A stretch of 64,000 nucleotides of DNA from Candidatus Obscuribacterales bacterium. Its GTDB lineage: Bacteria; Cyanobacteriota; Vampirovibrionia; Obscuribacterales; Obscuribacteraceae. Where the stretch lies: positions 896,001 to 960,000 of the forward strand of contig CBDDIJ010000002.1 of the NCBI GenBank assembly GCA_965228855.1, written 5' to 3'. A program made the position numbers and the translations under genes. Below are positions 40,211 to 57,127 of the stretch, piece by piece. Numbering within the stretch: position 1 is the stretch's first letter; every line of letters begins with the position of its first letter. The notes under the pieces are model-generated. The model saw only the letters and a list, made by a program, of their open reading frames with translations. It did no database searches and was not told the origin of the DNA.

Positions 40211-40843
40211 TTACTTGCCGCCGGGGATCTGCATGGGTTCGTCGGTGCCGGTCTCGTACGCCTTCTTGGTATCCGAGGTCAGCACGATGATGTACATCTG
40301 GTCGAGAGCCTGCTGGCCGGACTTGACGTTGGAGCCGATGCGCGCCTTGAGGGCGTCGGACGGGAAGAACTTGCCGAGGAAGAAGGACTTGATCAGCCCT
40401 TCCTGGCGCCAGAGGTCGTAGGCGCGCAGCATGTCGATCAGCTTGGACTGCTTCTGCTTGTACGCTTCACGGCCGGCGCGAACGAAGTCGACGATGCGGT
40501 CGTAGAGGTCGAGCTGACCCTTGAGGTCCGGGTAGGCTTCGGTGATCGCCGAGAACATAGCGCCGCCGGTGCCGGGTTCCATCTTGCCCTCGTAGCGGCC
40601 CTTGACGGCGTCTTCGAGGATCTGGTCGAGCTTGTCCGACTTCAGATTGGCGACGCCGATCTGCTCGTAGAAGCTGGACTTGAAGGCCGACAGCTCGTTC
40701 TGGTTGTCCAGATACTGAGCCGACAGCGAGGTCTCCATGCGAATGCCTTCGTTGCGCGTGGAGTTGACGTAGCCGTAGAGGCTGAAGATGCCGATGACGG
40801 CAGCGACGATCACGCCGATGCCGATGAGAAGACCTTTGCTCAT
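40211..40843 (-). CDS. Single-TM helical protein (LemA-like), copy 2
   Basis: N-terminal TM, helical body, AGGAG SD; near-identical to 41052-41684. Confidence 0.8.
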   Translation of the reverse strand: MSKGLLIGIGVIVAAVIGIFSLYGYVNSTRNEGIRMETSLSAQYLDNQNELSAFKSSFYEQIGVANLKSDKLDQILEDAVKGRYEGKMEPGTGGAMFSAITEAYPDLKGQLDLYDRIVDFVRAGREAYKQKQSKLIDMLRAYDLWRQEGLIKSFFLGKFFPSDALKARIGSNVKSGQQALDQMYIIVLTSDTKKAYETGTDEPMQIPGGK

Positions 40844-41051
40844 GTGTATTTTCTCCTGTTGGTTCGCGTGGCGAACCGAGTTTGGAAAGTTGAGAGACAC
40901 GAGCGGTTTCAAACCGCCCTGGAAACGAACAGCGAAACTGACTTCAGCTGTGAGATACGCAGCACCCGCGGTGCAAAACCGCGGGCGCTGGTATCGGATA
41001 CGCCACCACTAGAAGGCGTTGCCGCCGTTCGCGTGGTGGCGCCGGCGACGC

Positions 41052-41684
41052 TTACTTGCCGCCGGGGACCTTCATGGGCTCGTCGGTGCCGGTCTCGTAC
41101 GCCTTCTTGGTGTCCGAGGTCAGCACGATGATGTACATCTGGTCGAGAGCCTGCTGGCCGGACTGGACGTTCGAGCCGATGCGGGCCTTGAGCGCCTGCG
41201 ACGGGAAGAACTTGCCGAGGAAGAAGGACTTGATCAGCCCTTCCTGGCGCCAGAGGTCGTAGGCGCGCAGCATGTCGATCAGCTTGGACTGCTTCTGCTT
41301 GTACGCTTCACGACCGGCGCGAACGAAGTCGACGATGCGGTCGTAGAGGTCGAGCTGACCCTTGAGGTCCGGGTAGGCTTCGGTGATCGCCGAGAACATG
41401 GCGCCGCCGGTGCCGGGTTCCATCTTGCCCTCGTAGCGACCCTTGACGGCGTCTTCGAGGATCTGGTCGAGCTTGTCCGACTTCAGATTGGCGACGCCGA
41501 TCTGTTCGTAGAAGCTGGACTTGAAGGCCGACAGCTCGTTCTGGTTGTCCAGATACTGAGCCGACAGCGAGGTCTCCATGCGAATGCCTTCGTTGCGCGT
41601 GGAGTTGACGTAGCCGTAGAGGCTGAAGATGCCGATGACGGCAGCGACGATCACGCCGATGCCGATGAGAAGACCCTTGCTCAT
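41052..41684 (-). CDS. Single-TM helical protein (LemA-like), copy 1
   Basis: Same features as copy 2. Confidence 0.8.
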   Translation of the reverse strand: MSKGLLIGIGVIVAAVIGIFSLYGYVNSTRNEGIRMETSLSAQYLDNQNELSAFKSSFYEQIGVANLKSDKLDQILEDAVKGRYEGKMEPGTGGAMFSAITEAYPDLKGQLDLYDRIVDFVRAGREAYKQKQSKLIDMLRAYDLWRQEGLIKSFFLGKFFPSQALKARIGSNVQSGQQALDQMYIIVLTSDTKKAYETGTDEPMKVPGGK

Positions 41685-48342: not shown

Positions 48343-48382
48343 CCGGTGTGTTGTTTTCGAGTGTCCGGGGTATAACGAATCC

Positions 48383-48451
48383 GATTACGGTTAATGACTA
48401 GCGAGTCGCTAGTCGAAATCCCTAGATTTCTCTTCCTACTCCCGCGTAATC
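48383..48451 (+). ncRNA. Candidate compact retron msr-msd-like RNA
   Basis: GATTACG/CGTAATC terminal inverted repeat enclosing two hairpins; TATAAC at 48371. Confidence 0.45.
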
Positions 48452-48458
48452 CAGGCAG

Positions 48459-49628
48459 ATGCCCGAATCGCAAACTCAATTGCAGCTAAACGACATCTGT
48501 TCCGAGCTGGGGCTTTCGCCCCAGTTCTTGTTTGAACTTGCGGCTCGTGGCGATGAGCTGTACGAAACGTTCGAGCTTCCCAAGCGAGGCGGTGGCAAGC
48601 GTCGCATCGCGGTCCCGAAAGATGTTTTGAAAAACGTTCAGCGGACGCTGCTGCATGGGTTACTTTGCAGGTATGCGATGCCGAAACATGTGCATGGTTG
48701 CGTGAAGGGGCGTTCGGCGGTTTCAAACGCTGAAGGGCACGTGAAGAAGCCGTTTGTTATAAACATCGATCTGTCTGATTTTTTTGGATCGATCAAGGCG
48801 GAAACTGTTCAAAAGATTTTTGAGACTGCGTTCAAATGCGACTTTGAAACCGCTGCGATTCTTTCTAAACTCTGCACCTTTGGCGGCGTGCTTCCACAGG
48901 GGGCTCCCACGAGTCCTACTCTTGCGAATTTGTGTGCGCTGGACCTCGACAAAGAGTTGATTGCGGTTTGCGAAAAGTCCTTTGAAAACTACGCGCACCA
49001 CTACACTCGCTACGTGGACGATATCACCATATCTGGTGGCCCGGAGTTGGCGTTTTACCTGGCTGATTTCTATCGAGCCATTGAGCGATGCGGTTTTCGC
49101 GCTAATCCAAATAAGTTGAAGATGGCACGACCGAACTCGAGGCAGAAGGTAACCGGTTTGGTCGTGAATCAGAAACTGAATCCGCCCAAGAAGCTTGTCC
49201 GTCGCGTCCGGCAGCAGCTGTACTTCGCGACGAAGTTTGGTTTGATCAGTCACTGTGATAAACGTGATACCACTCCCGAATTGTTCTGGCAGCAGATTAG
49301 AGGTTTGATCGGCTACATCCGCATGACGAGACCTGATCTGGCGGATCAGTTCAATCTTCAGTTATCGCAAATATACGCTGATGCTCGGGTTGCTACACCG
49401 AATGATGAGGATTTGAAACTGCACACGCTGCGGGAGATGATTGTCGAAGAGCAGATCGCCACGTTTTATTACAAGGAACGATACTGCAAAGTCGCACCGG
49501 TCGAGATAACGCTCGATTCCGATGGGACCAAGATTCTGCGAGCGTTTCAGATGTTTCCCAATCAGCGCTGGCGCAAATTCAAAATTGCCGAAATGAAATT
49601 CCTTGCCAACGACGAGGACACGACCTAG
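48459..49628 (+). CDS. Retron-type reverse transcriptase with C-terminal WYL-like domain
   Basis: NAEGH (region X), IDLSDFF, LPQGAPTSPTLAN, YTRYVDD, KVTGLVV (region Y); extra ~70-aa C-terminal domain. Confidence 0.9.
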   Translation: MPESQTQLQLNDICSELGLSPQFLFELAARGDELYETFELPKRGGGKRRIAVPKDVLKNVQRTLLHGLLCRYAMPKHVHGCVKGRSAVSNAEGHVKKPFVINIDLSDFFGSIKAETVQKIFETAFKCDFETAAILSKLCTFGGVLPQGAPTSPTLANLCALDLDKELIAVCEKSFENYAHHYTRYVDDITISGGPELAFYLADFYRAIERCGFRANPNKLKMARPNSRQKVTGLVVNQKLNPPKKLVRRVRQQLYFATKFGLISHCDKRDTTPELFWQQIRGLIGYIRMTRPDLADQFNLQLSQIYADARVATPNDEDLKLHTLREMIVEEQIATFYYKERYCKVAPVEITLDSDGTKILRAFQMFPNQRWRKFKIAEMKFLANDEDTT

Positions 49629-49635
49629 GTTTCCC

Positions 49636-49963
49636 CCAAACTTGTCTACTATAAGACAGGGTATGTGTAAATGAACGAAACCGGCTGCCCAGGCTCGTTT
49701 CGAAGTCCGGCTGCTCCTGAATTGGAGAACTTGTCTATCCTGCTATGACGGAATGTCGAAAAATCGGCAATGCTGCATAGACACGAATCAAAGCCGAGCT
49801 CCAAACTTTTCTACTATAAGATGGCGTATGGACGAATGGTCGAAACCGGCTGACCAGGCTCGTTTCGAAGTCTGGCTGTTCCTGAATTGGTGAACTTGTC
49901 TATCCTGCTATGACGGAATGTCGAAAAATCGGCAATGCTGCATAGACACGAATCAAAGCCGAG
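49636..49963. repeat. Two tandem 165-bp partial copies of the dispersed element
   Basis: ctactataag at 49646 and 49811; core ttgtctatcctgctatgacgg...catagacac in each. Confidence 0.9.
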
Positions 49964-50041
49964 TTCAGTGACAAAACAATCACTCAACATAAATCATGGT
50001 TTTCGGGTGTTGTGCAGTGTTTATATTTTTCGAGTAACTCC

Positions 50042-51259
50042 ATGAGCAAAGCCGTATTTGATTTCACCAGAGAGTCACCTTCTCAAAAGTCAGGAGAGCC
50101 GGGCGAGCAGCGCGATCTGTTTCAACGCATGTTTGATGAGCGTGGCAGTCAGTACGATTGGTTTAAAACAGTTGATGGTGATCGCAATGGTGTTCTGTCG
50201 CAAGCGGAAATGCAGGCGGCGAGCGGGAATTACGCCTTGACCAATTCGGAGCGCGAATTTTTGGCTGCTGCTGCGGAACATTACGAGCTGGCTTCGCAGA
50301 TGGCTGGTCCATCTAAAGAGCAAGGCGTTTCCCGGGAAGACATTAATTCCATGCAGCTACTTCAACAAGCTAGAACTGATGCGCTTTTGCACACGGATGA
50401 AACCCGTGAAGTCGTCCTTCGGAACTTTGAAAGGCTTGACTCGAATAACAATGGCGAGATCAGCCGTAAGGAGATAAAGAGTGCGCTCAGTCAGCTTCCA
50501 AAAGAGGCGGAGTATAGTCAGGGCGCTAAAGACGCACTGCGGGCGGTGAAAAATTTGCAGGGCATTTTAGAAGCGCGCGATGTGATGCGTAATGCCGGCC
50601 TGCTCAACCAGCAGTCGGATGGTATTACTAAAGCAGGTGTTGAAGCGCTGCGGGTGAGCGATGTTGAGAGTTGGAAGCAGCAGTCAGTTATTGCAGAGCG
50701 GATTGAGGACGACCATAGTGGGCTGAAATGGAGAGATCTGATGTTCGCCGTGGGTGGTGGCATCGCCGGGTATTTCCTTAAGGGTGAAAAGGGAATTACG
50801 TCGGGTGGTCTTATGGGTTTTGGAATATCCAGAAAAATTGATAAGTATGAGCGTCCTTACTACGTCGCGACCGATGCCATGGATATCTACAAAGGTTACC
50901 GCGATGCTGGTATGGAATCGATGATGGCGAAATTTGACCCTGCCGGAGCGCTTCCGGAACCGGCGGCTGGTCAGGGGCCTGTTGCGAAATCGGAGTCGCC
51001 GTCGATTAAAACACCGGCAGCGAATTCGGAGCAGCCTTCGATTGAAACACCTGCTGCAGAGCCGCCTTCGATGGATAAACCGATTGTGCAGTCGGAACCG
51101 AAACAAATTCCGAATGATGCGTTCGATTTTTTCGTGCCGAAATCTACAGCGGAGAAAACATCCGCCGGTCGTCAACCTGTTGGTGACTCGGTTCTGGATA
51201 AGTCGAAGTCTCTGCAGAATCGTCGAAAGGAAACCGATTTCTTTGATTTTAAGAGCTAG
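50042..51259 (+). CDS. EF-hand domain protein with Pro-rich tail
   Basis: DGDRNGVLSQAE and DSNNNGEISRKE EF-hand loops. Confidence 0.8.
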   Translation: MSKAVFDFTRESPSQKSGEPGEQRDLFQRMFDERGSQYDWFKTVDGDRNGVLSQAEMQAASGNYALTNSEREFLAAAAEHYELASQMAGPSKEQGVSREDINSMQLLQQARTDALLHTDETREVVLRNFERLDSNNNGEISRKEIKSALSQLPKEAEYSQGAKDALRAVKNLQGILEARDVMRNAGLLNQQSDGITKAGVEALRVSDVESWKQQSVIAERIEDDHSGLKWRDLMFAVGGGIAGYFLKGEKGITSGGLMGFGISRKIDKYERPYYVATDAMDIYKGYRDAGMESMMAKFDPAGALPEPAAGQGPVAKSESPSIKTPAANSEQPSIETPAAEPPSMDKPIVQSEPKQIPNDAFDFFVPKSTAEKTSAGRQPVGDSVLDKSKSLQNRRKETDFFDFKS

Positions 51260-51489: not shown

Positions 51490-52632
51490 TTAAACGAGGG
51501 GCTGAGCAGCGGCGCCGCTGTAGTGGGACAGCGGGCGGAACAGTTTGTTGTCCTTCAGCTGTTCGCGGATGTGCTCGCTCCAGCCGATGATGCGGCTCGT
51601 GCAGAAGGTCGAGCTGTAGAGTTCACGCGGGATGCCGGCGTGCTCGAGAGCGACGGCGGTCCAGAACTCCACGTTGACGCGCAGGGCGCGGACCGGCGTT
51701 CCGACGGCGGCCTTCGCCTTCTGGTGGGCGTCGAGAGCCGACAGCACTTCGTGCTCGACGGCGCGAGCCAGCTCGATGCGCGGGCCCTTCTGCTTCTCGG
51801 CGACGCGCTTCAGCGTGAGCGCGCGCGGATCATCCGTGCGGTAGACGCGATGTCCGAAGCCCATGATGCGGCGCTTGGCGGTGAGCTGATCCTTGACCCA
51901 GTCCTTGGCCTTATCGACCGAGCCGATCGAGTCGAGCATGTCGAGAACCGGACCCGGAGCGCCGCCGTGCAGCGGACCGGACAGCGTGCCGATCGCCGCG
52001 GTGATGGCCGCGCCGACGTCGGCACCGGTCGAGGCGCAGACGCGGCCGGCGAAGGTCGAAGCGTTGAGACCGTGGTCCATGGTGAGGATCAGATAGGTCT
52101 CGACCGCCTGACGCGCTTCCTTCTTGGGCTTGTGACCGAGGATGCCCCAGAGGTAGCGCTCGGCGTAACCGAGGTTGTTGCGCTTCTTGAGCGGCGCCTT
52201 GCCGGTGTGGATCACCTCGACGATGGCGGGAGCGAGCGCGGAGAGCGCAAGCAGCTCCTCCTCGACTTCGGCTACGTCACGGTTGAGCCACGGTTTGTAG
52301 CCGCGCTGCGAGGCGATCGCGGAGAGAATGCTGCGGAAAGCCGAGAGCGGCTCGCCGGCGCGCAGTCCTTTCATGATGCGGATTTCCTGCGCGTTCGGGC
52401 GGCCGAGCTTCTCGACTTTGGCCTTGAACGCGTCGAGTTCCGCGTCGGTCGGCAGGCGGTTGTAGTGCAGCAGGAACCAGACTTCTTCGATGGTCTTCTT
52501 CTCGGCGAGGTCGACGGCGTTGTAGCCAGCGAAGGTGAGCTTGCCGTTGGTGCCGTCGACGTCGCTCAGCCGAGTCGCACAAGCGATAACGCCTTCGAGA
52601 CCGGCGGCAAACGATGGTGCGGGAGTGTTCAT
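51490..52632 (-). CDS. citA: Citrate synthase (short CitA-like type)
   Basis: GLEGV, DHGLNAST, GPLHGGA, MGFGHRVY, NVEFW. Confidence 0.9.
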   Translation of the reverse strand: MNTPAPSFAAGLEGVIACATRLSDVDGTNGKLTFAGYNAVDLAEKKTIEEVWFLLHYNRLPTDAELDAFKAKVEKLGRPNAQEIRIMKGLRAGEPLSAFRSILSAIASQRGYKPWLNRDVAEVEEELLALSALAPAIVEVIHTGKAPLKKRNNLGYAERYLWGILGHKPKKEARQAVETYLILTMDHGLNASTFAGRVCASTGADVGAAITAAIGTLSGPLHGGAPGPVLDMLDSIGSVDKAKDWVKDQLTAKRRIMGFGHRVYRTDDPRALTLKRVAEKQKGPRIELARAVEHEVLSALDAHQKAKAAVGTPVRALRVNVEFWTAVALEHAGIPRELYSSTFCTSRIIGWSEHIREQLKDNKLFRPLSHYSGAAAQPLV

Positions 52633-52719
52633 GGTGGTTTCCTTATGGGCAGTGTACTGGGATGGACGCAGTAAGAAGGCGCCTGTAAAGCAGACGCCGA
52701 AGCGCATGCCTAAACGCGA

Positions 52720-53021: not shown

Positions 53022-56000
53022 TCAGGGCTTCGGCTGGTCCGCCATCAAGCTGGCGAGCAGCTCGACATTGGAGTGGATATTCTCCGCCGAGGCGTGGAGC
53101 GCCTTGAGCTCGTCGTCGTTGAGCTTGAGGTTGACGATGCGTTCGACACCCTTCTTGCCGAGGATGATGGGAAGCCCGATGAAGACCGGCGGCAGACCGT
53201 GCTTGCCGAGGCTGTGCACTGAGCACGGCACGAGCTTGCGACCGCCCGTGAGAATGGTCTCGACCATCTGCGCGGTAGCCGCACCCGGAGCGTACCAAGC
53301 GCTGCCGGTCTTCAGGTGCTGAACGATTTCCGCGCCGCCGTTGCGCGTGCGATCGCTCATCTCGGCGATGCGCTTGGCGGAAATCAGCTCGGTGACAGGC
53401 ACGCCGTTGACCGTGCTGAAGCGAGGCATCGGCACCATCAGGTCGCCGTGTCCGCCGAGCACCATGGCGCGAACGTCATCGCTCGCCACATCGAGTTCTT
53501 CTGCGATGAACGACTGGAAGCGCGCACTGTCGAGCACGCCGGCCATGCCGATCACCTTGCGGGCGGCGACGCCGGTCACCTTCCAGACGAGGTACGCCAT
53601 GACGTCGAGCGGGTTGGAGACGACCACGAAAGTCGCGCGCGGCGACATCTTATGGCTCTCGCGTGCAGCGGTTCCGACAATCGAGGCGTTGATCTTGAGC
53701 AGGTCGTCGCGCGTCATGCCCGGCTTGCGGGGGCTGCCGGCGCAGATGACGACCACATCGGAGTTCTTGGTGTCGGCGTAATCGGAGGTGCCGGTGATGC
53801 GCACCGAGCCGCCGTTGAGCGCGACTGCCTGGGAGAGGTCGAGTGCCTTGCCCTTGGCGACGCCCTCGTTGATGTCGAGGAGGACGATGTCCGCGGCGTT
53901 GTGCAGCGCGAGCATTTGACCGACCGTGGCGCCGACGTTGCCGCCGCCGCCGATGATGGATACCTTCTTCATGGAGGATCTCTTCGTGGTTGAGCGCCGT
54001 TTCGGGCGCGAGGCTGCAGGAGCTTTTGTCGGGGAGGAACCGTTTGCGCTGTCACCGCTGGTGGTGGCGGCGGGTTTGGCGTCGCTTGTGGTTTCACCGC
54101 CGGTGGTGGTCTGTGCGGCAGGCGCCGTTCCGTTCGCGTCGGCAGGCGCGGTCTCACTCGCGCAGGCTTTCGCTGTTTCATTCGCGGTCGAAACCGACTT
54201 CGCTGCCTGCTCGGCTTTCCGACGTTCGTGCACGAGATTGAGAGCGGAACCGGCTTTGAACCAGCCGATTTGCTCTTCGGTCATCGTGTGTTTCGCTTCC
54301 AGGCGATCGACCGTGCCGTCTTCGTGAGTGACGGAAACGTCGACCAGCTTGCCGGGAGCGAGTTCCGAGAGTCCTTCGATCGACACGCGATCCCTGTCGC
54401 GAATCAGGTCGTAGTCGGACGAGTTCTTGAACGTGAGCGCGAGAACGCCCTGCTGTTTCAGGTTCGTCTCGTGAATGCGAGCGAAACTGCGGGCGATGAC
54501 CGCGCGGCAGCCGAGATGGCGGGGCGACATCGCCGCGTGTTCGCGACTGGAGCCTTCGCCGTAGTTCAGATCTCCGATTGCCACCCAGCTGACGTTGCTC
54601 GCCTTGTAGGCGCGCGCCAGCGTAGCGAGGCGCATGGTCTCGCCGGTCAGGACATTGAGACCTTCGCCGGGCTTGGCAGAGAAAGCGTTGTTCGCGCCAA
54701 GGAACATGTTCTCGCTGATGCGGTCGAGGTGTCCCCGGTATTTCAGCCACGGGCCGGCAGGCGAGATGTGGTCGGTCGTGCATTTGCCGGCTGCTTTGAG
54801 CAGCACCGGCATCCCCGAGAAGTCCTTGCCGTCCCACTTGGCGAAGGGGAGGAGAACCTCGAGGCGCTGCGAGTCCGGCTTGATGGCGACCTCTATGGTC
54901 TCGCCGGTGGTGGCGCGATTGGCGCGTTCGGTTTCAGCATCGAGATAACCGAAGTCGACCTCGCTGAAGCCCTTGGCCGGAAGCCCGCCCTGTCCCGGTG
55001 GCTCGAGCATGAATTTCGTGCCGTCAGGCGCCTCCAGGGTGTCCGTGAGGGGGTTGAAATCCAGGCTGCCCTTGAGCGCGAAGGCGGTGACGATTTCCGG
55101 GCTTGCGATGAACGCGAGCGTTTCCGGGTTGCCGTCGTTGCGGCGCGGGAAGTTGCGGTTGAAGGACGTGATGATCGAGTTGGCGTCGCCTTCCTTGATG
55201 TCATCGCGCTTCCACTGCCCGATGCACGGACCGCAGGCGTTGGCCAGAACATTGGCGCCGACACTTTCCAGGTCCTTGAGCTGACCGTCGCGGGTGATGG
55301 TTTCATGCACCTGGATTGAGCCAGGCGTTACCATGAAACCGACCGCAGTCTTGATGCCCTTCTCGGCCGCCTGCCGCGCCACATCCGCCGCGCGAGTCAT
55401 GTCCTGGTAGCTGGAGTTGGTGCAGCTGCCAATCAGAGCGTAGCGCAGAGCGCTCGGGTAGCCCTTCGCAGCGACTTCAGCTTTGAACTGCGAGATCGGT
55501 CGCGCCAGGTCCGGCGTGTGCGGACCGACGATATGCGGTTCCAGCGTGGAAAGATCGATTTCGATGACCCGGTCGAAGAACTTGTGCGGGTCGGCTTCGA
55601 CCTCCGGATCGGCAGTGAGGAAGCGCTCGTTCGCCTTGGCGAGGGCGCCGATCTGCTCGCGTCCGGTGAGTGCCAGATATTCGAGGATGTGGTCGTCGAG
55701 TGGGAAAACGGAGGTCGTCGCGCCGAGTTCCGCGCCCATATTCGTGATGGTCGCCTTGCCGGTCGCGCTGATGGAGCGCGTTCCTTCGCCGAAGTATTCG
55801 ACGATGGAACCGGTGCCGCCATCGACCGTGAGGATGCCGGCGAGCTTGAGAATGATGTCCTTGGGCGCGGCCCAGCCGTTGAGCTTGCCGGTCAGTTTCA
55901 CACCAATCAGCTTCGGCCAGCGCAGTCCCCAGGGTTCGCCCGCCATGGTGAAGGTCGCGTCTGCGCCGCCCACGCCGATGGCGAGCATGCCGAGACCGCC

Positions 56001-56510
56001 GGCGTTGGGCGTGTGCGAGTCGGTGCCGATGAGCAGGCTGCCCGGGAAGGCGTAGTTCTCCAGCACCACCTGATGGATGATGCCCGAACCGGGCTTCCAG
56101 AAACCGACACCGTATTTGGTGCTGGCCGTGCGCAGGAAGTCATAGACTTCCGAGTTGGTATCGAGCGCGTTGAGTAGATCCAGTTTCGCTCCGACGCGCG
56201 CCTGGATCAGGTGATCGCAGTGGACGGTGGAGGGAACGAAAACCTTGTCGAGATTCGCTTGCATAAACTGCAACAGCGCCATCTGCGCCGTCGCGTCCTG
56301 CATGGCGACTCGGTCAGGTCGAAGGAAAACGTAGGAACTGCCGCGTGTCGGGAAGGTTTCGCCCTCGTTCCATCGGTCGAGGTGCGCGGAGAGAATCTTC
56401 TCGGCGAGCGTCAGGGGGCGCTCGGCGCGTCCGCGTGCGACGCGATATTTTTCGGGCAGAGAATCGTAGAGAGGCGTGACTTCCGCCAGAGTAGTTTGTC
56501 GTTTCGTCAT
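53022..56510 (-). CDS. Aconitate hydratase fused in frame to malate dehydrogenase (MDH part 53022-53972)
   Basis: Aconitase: [78 protein letters not shown]. No stop codon between them. Confidence 0.9.
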
Positions 56511-57127
56511 ATGTGTCACCAACTCCAGTGAGGATGCTGTTTAAAGAAAAACAGCCACAGTTGTTCCGCCGAATCTTCTCCGCGCGCTATCGAAGCGCAT
56601 CTAGGGAAAGGTTCTCGATGGGAAACAACTCTGGTGAGTTAAAGAGCCAAGGTCTGGAATAAACGATGTATGCAGAATGTTTCTAGCTTATAAACAGGTG
56701 TGATTTGAGCTTTAATCATGAACACAAGATGAAGACTTGGATAAACGTTTACTGACCCTTGAAAAGTGGCGACCGGCGCGGCTCTTGCCTGCTCTGCAAT
56801 TCGAGGTTGCCAGTTGGAATTTAGGGTCAAGCTAGCGCGGCGTGCGCAAGAAGCCAGTTGGCTAACAATGTATATGCGAACGAAACCGCTTGGCAGGTGC
56901 AACTTATTGATTGATCGATTGACCTGATTGGTGCCAGTCGAAACTTGAACAAACGGATTTTTAGACGGATTGAGTTTGTCACAAACCGCTGATATCGGTT
57001 TGGTTAGATATTCACACGCAGCACACACCAATCGAATGTCACCCGAGCGGACTTGCCGAATATGGCTTCCAGTGCGGTGTACGCCGACGTCAGGTACGGG
57101 CACTCGATGATTCAGGAGGTCACTCAG

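Follow-up and report, generated by a model that had tools for sequence, protein, structure and literature searches.

A retron-type reverse transcriptase (RT) gene that is fused to a WYL-fold domain and preceded by a miniature noncoding RNA (ncRNA) was found in a 64,000-nucleotide stretch of Candidatus Obscuribacterales DNA, referred to here as the window. The gene (48459-49628 on the forward strand, 389 aa; identified by PADLOC/NCBIfam profiles and a structure model), together with the upstream RNA, looks like a two-part stand-alone retron and would be a candidate for an undescribed minimal type. As far as sequence comparison can tell, the RT-WYL gene and its RNA are real, conserved and retron-like by anatomy, with one customary feature, the msd stem, lacking. 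The system appears to be new in two respects: the fused bare WYL domain and the minimal RNA without an msd hairpin.

The RT part possessed the motifs from which the earlier note had recognized a retron-type enzyme, all on the forward strand. These were Region X, with NAEGH as its NAxxH motif (48726-48740, residues 90-94; N in 98%, A in 100%, and H in 100% of 81 family members), the catalytic YVDD (49011-49022, residues 185-188; Y, D, and D in 100% of the 81), and the VTG of Region Y (49149-49157, residues 231-233). The thumb that follows VTG contained R248, R251, Q252, H265, and C266, each conserved across the same 81 members. All 25 PADLOC matches listed for the window protein were retron RT models, with III-A (266 bits), XI (258), and XII (244) scoring best, and NCBIfam retron models gave 188 to 227 bits, every one below its own cut-off, and the group II intron model 45. 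When the whole-protein model was submitted to Foldseek, the best matches were the Eco2 and Ec86 retron RTs and the top 13 rows were all retron RTs. The joint presence of NAxxH, YxDD, and VTG and the grouping by profile and structure place this protein among the retron RTs; a position outside the retrons, which the earlier note had considered, was not seen in the profile or Foldseek results.

The C-terminal ~70 residues adopt a WYL fold, as confirmed by the predicted structure. In the AlphaFold model (pLDDT 93 for this domain), residues ~316-385 (49404-49613, forward strand) formed a helix and a five-strand barrel, without an HTH or WCX domain. Foldseek with the domain model ranked DriD, PafBC, and BrxR first, with CapW also among the leading structural matches. 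A wide VIA structure search over 48,161 chains returned WYL proteins as its entire top nine (Z of 9.6-11.7, rmsd of 1.8-3.0 over 70-73 residues), and Hfq/Sm folds reached Z values of no more than 8.3. These structural matches bear out the WYL-like domain that had been proposed from the letters alone. By sequence, Pfam provided no C-terminal domain match for the window protein, the PADLOC WYL match was weak (E 0.01), and the Pfam WYL model weakly matched 4 of 19 family members (best E 0.0016). A 6-row profile of the domain had no match in a PDB sequence search; against 1.84 billion representatives it retrieved 39 proteins, including three spurious ones (long or repetitive), with family members and fragments ranked first and stand-alone proteins of 74-145 aa following, 14 of 18 of which matched Pfam WYL at E <0.1 when scanned. 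A 32-row profile matched BrxR (E 6e-4), and BrxR/CapW were the nearest proteins by sequence. The domain belongs to the WYL superfamily by its helix, its Sm/SH3-like barrel, and its sequence relationship to known members. Of the motif pattern from which it had originally been recognized, the R-x-F-R/K element is not family-wide (position 375 is K in 9%). The closest sequence relatives of the fused domain are apparently uncharacterised stand-alone WYL-like proteins of ~90 aa (P0022-P0041), which share the signature L-x-A-[FWY]-Q ... G-W-R-x-F and end in a short tail that is also conserved. Submission of the domain to the ESM Atlas gave a best score of 0.79, below the lead threshold, with mostly phage clusters as neighbours.

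The proposal in the earlier note that the enzyme carries its own ssDNA/RNA sensor was borne out in part. Y338, the equivalent of DriD Y168, was present in 96% of the 81 family members, R361, the equivalent of CapW R168, was R or K in 97%, and R372 was partly kept (58%). In a profile alignment to CapW, which is not a superposition, the equivalents of S144, R164, and R184 were not conserved in the family; the CapW and DriD residues are those given in the available text of PMC11662680 and PMC9186387, and mutants at S144 and R184 abolish CapW sensing. RT-WYL proteins are also missing the WCX domain, which forms the ssDNA pocket in WYL regulators, and in 67 of 81 of them the WYL domain has an excess of acidic residues (median net charge of -4). 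Thus, the sensor proposal retains Y338 and R361 and loses the remaining contacts and the WCX domain: by pocket residues and domain content the proteins would not count as ssDNA-sensing WYL regulators, with three of four CapW ssDNA contacts apparently lost. Q364, P367, and W371 make up a different conserved set, one that is common to the ~90-aa stand-alone WYL-like proteins.

The start coordinate in the earlier note, 48383, is exactly the first nucleotide of a conserved ncRNA that went unmentioned there. The same element was found directly upstream of the start codon at 20 of 20 RT loci (18 intact, 2 broken), and consisted of a 7-nt repeat, 6-7 nt, a hairpin of 8 bp with a 3-nt loop, a variable segment, and a complementary repeat. 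In the window, all on the forward strand, a -10-like promoter hexamer (48371-48376, 5/6 to consensus) ends 6 nt before the ncRNA; the 5' terminal repeat (48383-48389, 7 nt) is followed by the msr-like hairpin (48396-48414), a variable segment of 30 nt that is the candidate template, or msd (48415-48444), and the 3' terminal repeat (48445-48451), which has an invariant C as its first base and ends 7 nt before the start codon. Among 18 distinct rows, the helix of the terminal repeats was 100% paired with changes on both sides at 3 of 7 pairs, and the hairpin, with an invariant core, was 97% paired with 3 of 8 pairs changed on both sides. For the two helices together, 98.5% of cells paired and 6 of 15 pairs changed on both sides, figures that are inflated by related rows among the 18; neither the pairing nor the covariation score was reached by any of 500 shuffles, and pairing in slid controls was 26-45%. 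The 8-bp hairpin is a candidate RT-recognition stem-loop, and we infer that G48389, the invariant last base of the 5' repeat, is the candidate branching (priming) G. Across 28 distinct copies the repeats span 65-72 nt and the variable part 26-33 nt, a conserved length in which neither sequence nor fold is conserved: its MFE ranged from 0 to -5.4 kcal/mol and was below the shuffled mean in only 8 of the 28, and the small hairpin within this segment of the window copy is not conserved. A DNA palindrome or transposon ends in place of an RNA are disfavoured, as 12 cells change to G-U versus 4 to mismatches, and G-U changes on the + strand fit an RNA rather than a DNA element.

When the pattern of the 5' half alone was scanned against 185,579 genomes, 55 matches were obtained, 21 of which also contained the hairpin arm, with a perfect 3' repeat at a distance of 26-33 nt. 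An RT lay downstream of 19 of these 21 (one of the other two is at a contig end and one is an orphan) and of none of the other 34; the scan thus predicted the other, unsearched half of the element. In metagenomes, an RT was present at 15 of 48 matches, every one with the hairpin; one of these RT loci had a 6/7 repeat and another its best repeat at 18 nt. Neither of the 2 pattern matches in the viral collection was real. A covariance model run on the 107 genomes of the order found single copies in 22 of them, corresponding to the 20 training loci, the orphan, and the contig end; the genome, metagenome, and covariance-model searches overlap, and their counts are not additive. Of 19 distinct family loci, 15 had a strict -10 hexamer 4-9 nt before the 5' repeat, and at control positions the count was 16 of 190; the -10-like copy of the window fails this strict filter and is absent from the promoter scan output. 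Rfam had no relevant family for the ncRNA.

Compared with known retron RNAs, the contiguous element has the paired terminal repeats (a1/a2) of a retron, and its one covarying hairpin falls within the one to three short msr hairpins described in the available text of PMC7736814. The long msd stem that is customary in retrons (10-50 bp) was not found; in its place are the 26-33 nt without a conserved fold. G48389 is invariant but able to pair with the invariant C, and the bases before it are TTAC, TTAT, TTGC, or TTGT, not the usual TTA; branch Gs lie just outside the repeat, according to the accessible text of PMC11257497. The missing msd hairpin, the non-TTA context, and the pairable G would each count against a model of retron-like msDNA. 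A second retron lineage (G000:C3:2800520-2801257; L016-L026, L048-L058) is common in the order and has one copy in the genome of the window. It has an RT of about 300 aa and a canonical RNA of 150-190 nt, with a hairpin of the same size and a 3-nt loop that is preceded by 15-17 nt and an extra stem and followed by 83-132 structured nt (-13 to -40 kcal/mol; 13 of 20 loci parsed).

Homologs with the same fusion, for which the earlier note had suggested a search, form a distinct family. The intact fusion was present in 18 of 107 genomes of the order, spanning 11 genera, and the first homologues of the window protein were 42-52% identical. Among the best 120 of 1,705 protein matches, 84 clusters lay above a gap from 413 to 277 bits; 81 of them carried the WYL domain and the other 3 end at the thumb, and the domain was found in 0 of 35 proteins below the gap, one family fragment there being left uncounted. 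Searching 400 other genomes of the phylum produced no match that reached the WYL domain, and plasmids contained no family-level match reaching the WYL motif region (best identity of 36%). Family loci were labelled mostly as Candidatus Obscuribacterales/Melainabacteria, with some other cyanobacteria; one Flavobacterium, one Proteobacteria, and one unclassified MAG are outlying labels that may be mislabelled or misbinned. The family formed one branch in two quick trees (SH-aLRT of 99 and 93), in which same-genus copies grouped together. In a quick tree that did not include a TXI_C2like sequence, it was split from 8 clade-8-like RTs by a 95% branch, and an AU test did not reject grouping it with these RTs (p of 0.098); it was also apart from XIII-like RTs in a quick tree. 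Three of the nearest outgroup sequences (P0123, P0134, and P0146, of L123-type loci) are retron RTs that have 540-560 aa and an extended C terminus, which in one of them contains PF28130.

Codon comparisons indicate purifying selection on both domains. The dN/dS of the RT part was 0.04-0.09 in six pairs, and that of the WYL domain was 0.063, 0.053, and 0.086 in three pairs, two of them near saturation; the other WYL values were 0, 0.25 (a near-identical pair with two changes), and, in one pair, undefined. Decayed copies were recognized as well: in G007 the thumb and WYL domain are lost by a 3' deletion, in G123 the gene is broken by an internal deletion, G005 retains only the last WYL codons, and G029 the ncRNA alone. 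In data from an otherwise identical strain, one contig (run X7) joins 48860 to 50073, so that the greater part of the RT-WYL gene is skipped, and loose ends were seen in other contigs at 48466, 49169, 49518, and 48125; these may be inactivating rearrangements in the population or amplification chimeras.

Judged by its surroundings, the retron stands alone, without a partner gene. A GNAT gene lies upstream and an EF-hand protein gene downstream, as the earlier note had reported in stating that no typical effector is adjacent. Across 21 loci, a given neighbour recurred at two or three at most, and these were nearly always loci of close relatives; PADLOC matched 2 of 87 neighbour proteins (91 ORFs minus 4 overlapping the RT), both via generic domains, and 0 of 20 window genes. 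The RT-WYL protein itself encodes no toxin or enzyme effector domain, and no fusion with an extra effector was found among 101 candidates of 682-2000 aa, which is weak evidence. The GNAT and EF-hand proteins were rejected as partners, being not common across genera, and homologues of the GNAT occur in three genus relatives without an RT or hairpin within 1.5 kb. Beyond the stop codon, 49636-49965 comprises two tandem 165-nt copies, 91% identical, that hold an imperfect palindrome of ~53 nt; the palindrome recurs at >30 other sites in the genome, mostly on the same contig, as a REP-like dispersed repeat of the lineage. This tandem repeat was rejected as a part of the system, given the genome-dispersed palindrome inside it and the lack of a match in 39 other family loci.

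In its available text, Mestre 2020 (PMC7736814) lists fusions of retron RTs to TOPRIM, DUF3800, protease, and TIR domains, and WYL occurs 0 times in the main text; a long msd stem is present in all of its consensus RNAs, and unusual undetected ones are allowed for. With no listed partner or fused domain, RT-WYL matches none of the 13 types of that work. The available text of Toro 2026 (PMC13712802) describes TXI_C2like, a group of type XI-like retrons of Bacteroidota only (RT clade 8), in which WYL proteins with strong DriD matches are separate ORFs at 47 of 126 loci and a candidate RNA of three stem-loops lies upstream of the RT. Our family resembles TXI_C2like in having a retron RT without a protease or toxin fusion, a WYL link, and a candidate upstream ncRNA, but it is distinct by WYL layout, host, and RNA: its WYL domain is bare and part of the RT protein in 81 of 84 clusters, the phylum is another one, and the RNA has one hairpin. 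The claim of an undescribed architecture survives comparison with the accessible portions of both papers. The supplementary table of Toro 2026 (PMC13712802) assigns the RT on contig JACRFZ010000039 to typeIII-A5 with low confidence; this contig is our locus L086, which carries the ncRNA and the full fusion, and a second Obscuribacterales row in the table has the same three neighbour families as L106. Family members had thus already been collected there, and the portions seen do not describe the fusion or the RNA. A literature search, with most subscription papers outside its scope, revealed no account of a retron-WYL fusion or of such a retron in Melainabacteria/Obscuribacterales.

Among classified systems, types I-C (RT-TOPRIM, Eco2/Ec67), XI (RT-protease), XII (RT-TIR), and VII-A1 (RT-DUF3800) likewise comprise an ncRNA and one RT with a C-terminal fused domain, but their fused domains are enzymes. 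Three of these single-gene retrons (I-C, XI, and XII) belong to clade 8, and the family RTs scored 218-258 bits on the XI/XII models, about half of the 420-470 bits of clade-8-like RTs. Similarly, RT_III-A was the best PADLOC model for the family (244-280 bits), whereas typical RTs of type III-A, which pair an RT with a PRTase-like effector, obtained 430-480 bits on their best model; the RT-WYL family has no PRTase partner because it has no common neighbour of any kind. For size, Eco2 has a 118-nt RNA and a 67-nt msDNA (PMC12916289, in the text available). Types V (cold-shock) and VI (HTH) and the Ec107-like orphans also lack an obvious toxin and have a nucleic-acid-binding partner or stand alone; there, however, the partner is a separate gene or absent, and the RNAs described in the accessible part of PMC7736814 have a long msd stem. 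The wHTH-WYL-WCX regulators CapW, BrxR, DriD, and PafBC share the fold and the residues corresponding to Y338 and R361, but the RT-WYL domain has no HTH or WCX, is acidic, and has lost three of four CapW ssDNA contacts. According to the available text of PMC9226505, the neighbour of UG2/DRT RTs is a YodC-WYL protein encoded separately.

Our best explanation of the whole, held tentatively and at slightly short of even chances, is a two-part stand-alone retron made of a minimal msr-msd RNA and RT-WYL, possibly acting as a guard. One promoter would yield a transcript whose first ~70 nt are the minimal msr-msd RNA and whose remainder codes for RT-WYL. By analogy with Eco1, the thumb would grip the 8-bp hairpin, and the RT would use the 2'-OH of G48389 as its primer and the free segment as its template, as far as the hairpin. 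The resulting ssDNA would be branched and unstructured, begin with G, and not exceed about 30 nt; to our knowledge, the shortest classical msDNA is that of Ec48, at 48 nt. The invariant C of the 3' repeat would specify this first G, the commonest first DNA base in a retron census (available text of 10.1101/2024.01.25.577267), and the parts of Eco1 that do not tolerate change are the priming G and the stem with the 3-nt loop (PMC11257497, accessible text). By analogy with these systems, the RT-WYL retron probably synthesizes RT-DNA. The tethered WYL domain may then hold the ssDNA (or RNA) via the face bearing Y338 and R361, with the RT standing in for the missing WCX domain. Because WYL regulators have unstructured ssDNA as their class of ligand, binding in cis is a natural guess, and nucleic-acid binding by the fused domain is possible, with the balance leaning somewhat against it. 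The complex would serve as a guard, tripped when a phage nuclease, SSB, or recombinase takes the short ssDNA away. As the gene specifies no toxin domain, the output would have to come either from a non-enzymatic source, such as the RT itself or the acidic surface of the WYL domain once freed, or from a host factor in trans. We consider the case for an anti-phage role to be about evenly poised. The patchy presence of the system and the four relics described above are typical of accessory defence genes and favour the guard explanation; the lost CapW contacts, the acidic domain, and the lack of a defence context and of an effector count against it.

Other readings of the same parts were considered. 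The retron could be domesticated for a non-defence purpose, its short ssDNA signalling to the ssDNA sensors of the host (HTH-WYL regulators, RecA) or acting as a decoy for them, and its fused WYL domain buffering or presenting that ssDNA. Consistent with such domestication, which Mestre 2020 proposes for lineage-restricted retrons (PMC7736814, available text), the family is confined to one order with same-genus copies grouped together, no defence neighbours are found, the ncRNA was not found in the viral collection, and the genome of the window has 4 other WYL proteins of regulator size. The intact system is nevertheless limited to 18 of 107 genomes, where it occupies different loci, and at least 4 copies have decayed; we judge domestication to be rather improbable. 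A related and still less probable idea is that of an effector-less one-protein retron in which an unstructured ssDNA of about 20-30 nt is the ligand of its own WYL domain and acts as a signalling switch, not a caged toxin; the ssDNA would be released to, or competed for with, host ssDNA sensors. If true, no described retron would have a more reduced layout, and a link would exist between retron biology and DNA-damage signalling by WYL proteins.

The WYL domain may have been repurposed as an acidic protein-binding module (a phage-protein sensor, DNA mimic, or oligomer contact) attached to an otherwise ordinary small retron. The loss of three of four CapW contacts and of WCX, the median charge, and the conserved Q364, P367, and W371 shared with the ~90-aa proteins point in this direction, but the nucleic-acid face keeps Y338 and R361 in 96-97% of members, and a tethered ligand would presumably require less affinity; we regard this reading as unlikely. 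It is more doubtful still that the RNA has ceased to be an msDNA template and functions as an RT-binding leader for autoregulation or as a scaffold, with the RT making no product or another one, for example a short homopolymer or repeated copies of the kind known from some DRT systems. The lack of an msd hairpin and of a conserved template sequence and the position of the 3' repeat beside the start codon are compatible with a leader; the full retron layout (repeats, G, hairpin, and promoter at the repeat), the template length held at 26-33 nt, and the invariant catalytic residues argue against it. A coding tandem product as in DRT2 is unlikely, as the template lengths are not multiples of three.

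Retrons are usually viewed as an RNA, an RT, and a toxic effector, with a structured msDNA that cages the effector. The present family keeps its RNA and RT under selection without an enzyme effector or msd hairpin; it therefore tests what a minimal retron is and bears on whether retrons can act without a toxin, a question raised by orphan retrons. As a single 1.25-kb unit whose natural 65-72-nt scaffold accepts a template of any sequence, it could, if active, provide a compact chassis for intracellular ssDNA production.

Two other regions of the window stood out. On the reverse strand, 40211-41684 contains two near-identical tandem genes of about 210 aa that adjoin a gene for a 465-aa membrane protein. 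A single ORF of 1166 aa (53022-56522, reverse strand) encodes two enzyme-like parts joined by a linker in one frame, which we take from their motifs to be an aconitase and a malate/lactate-dehydrogenase-like part; the gene beside it (51490-52707) is presumably citrate-synthase-like.
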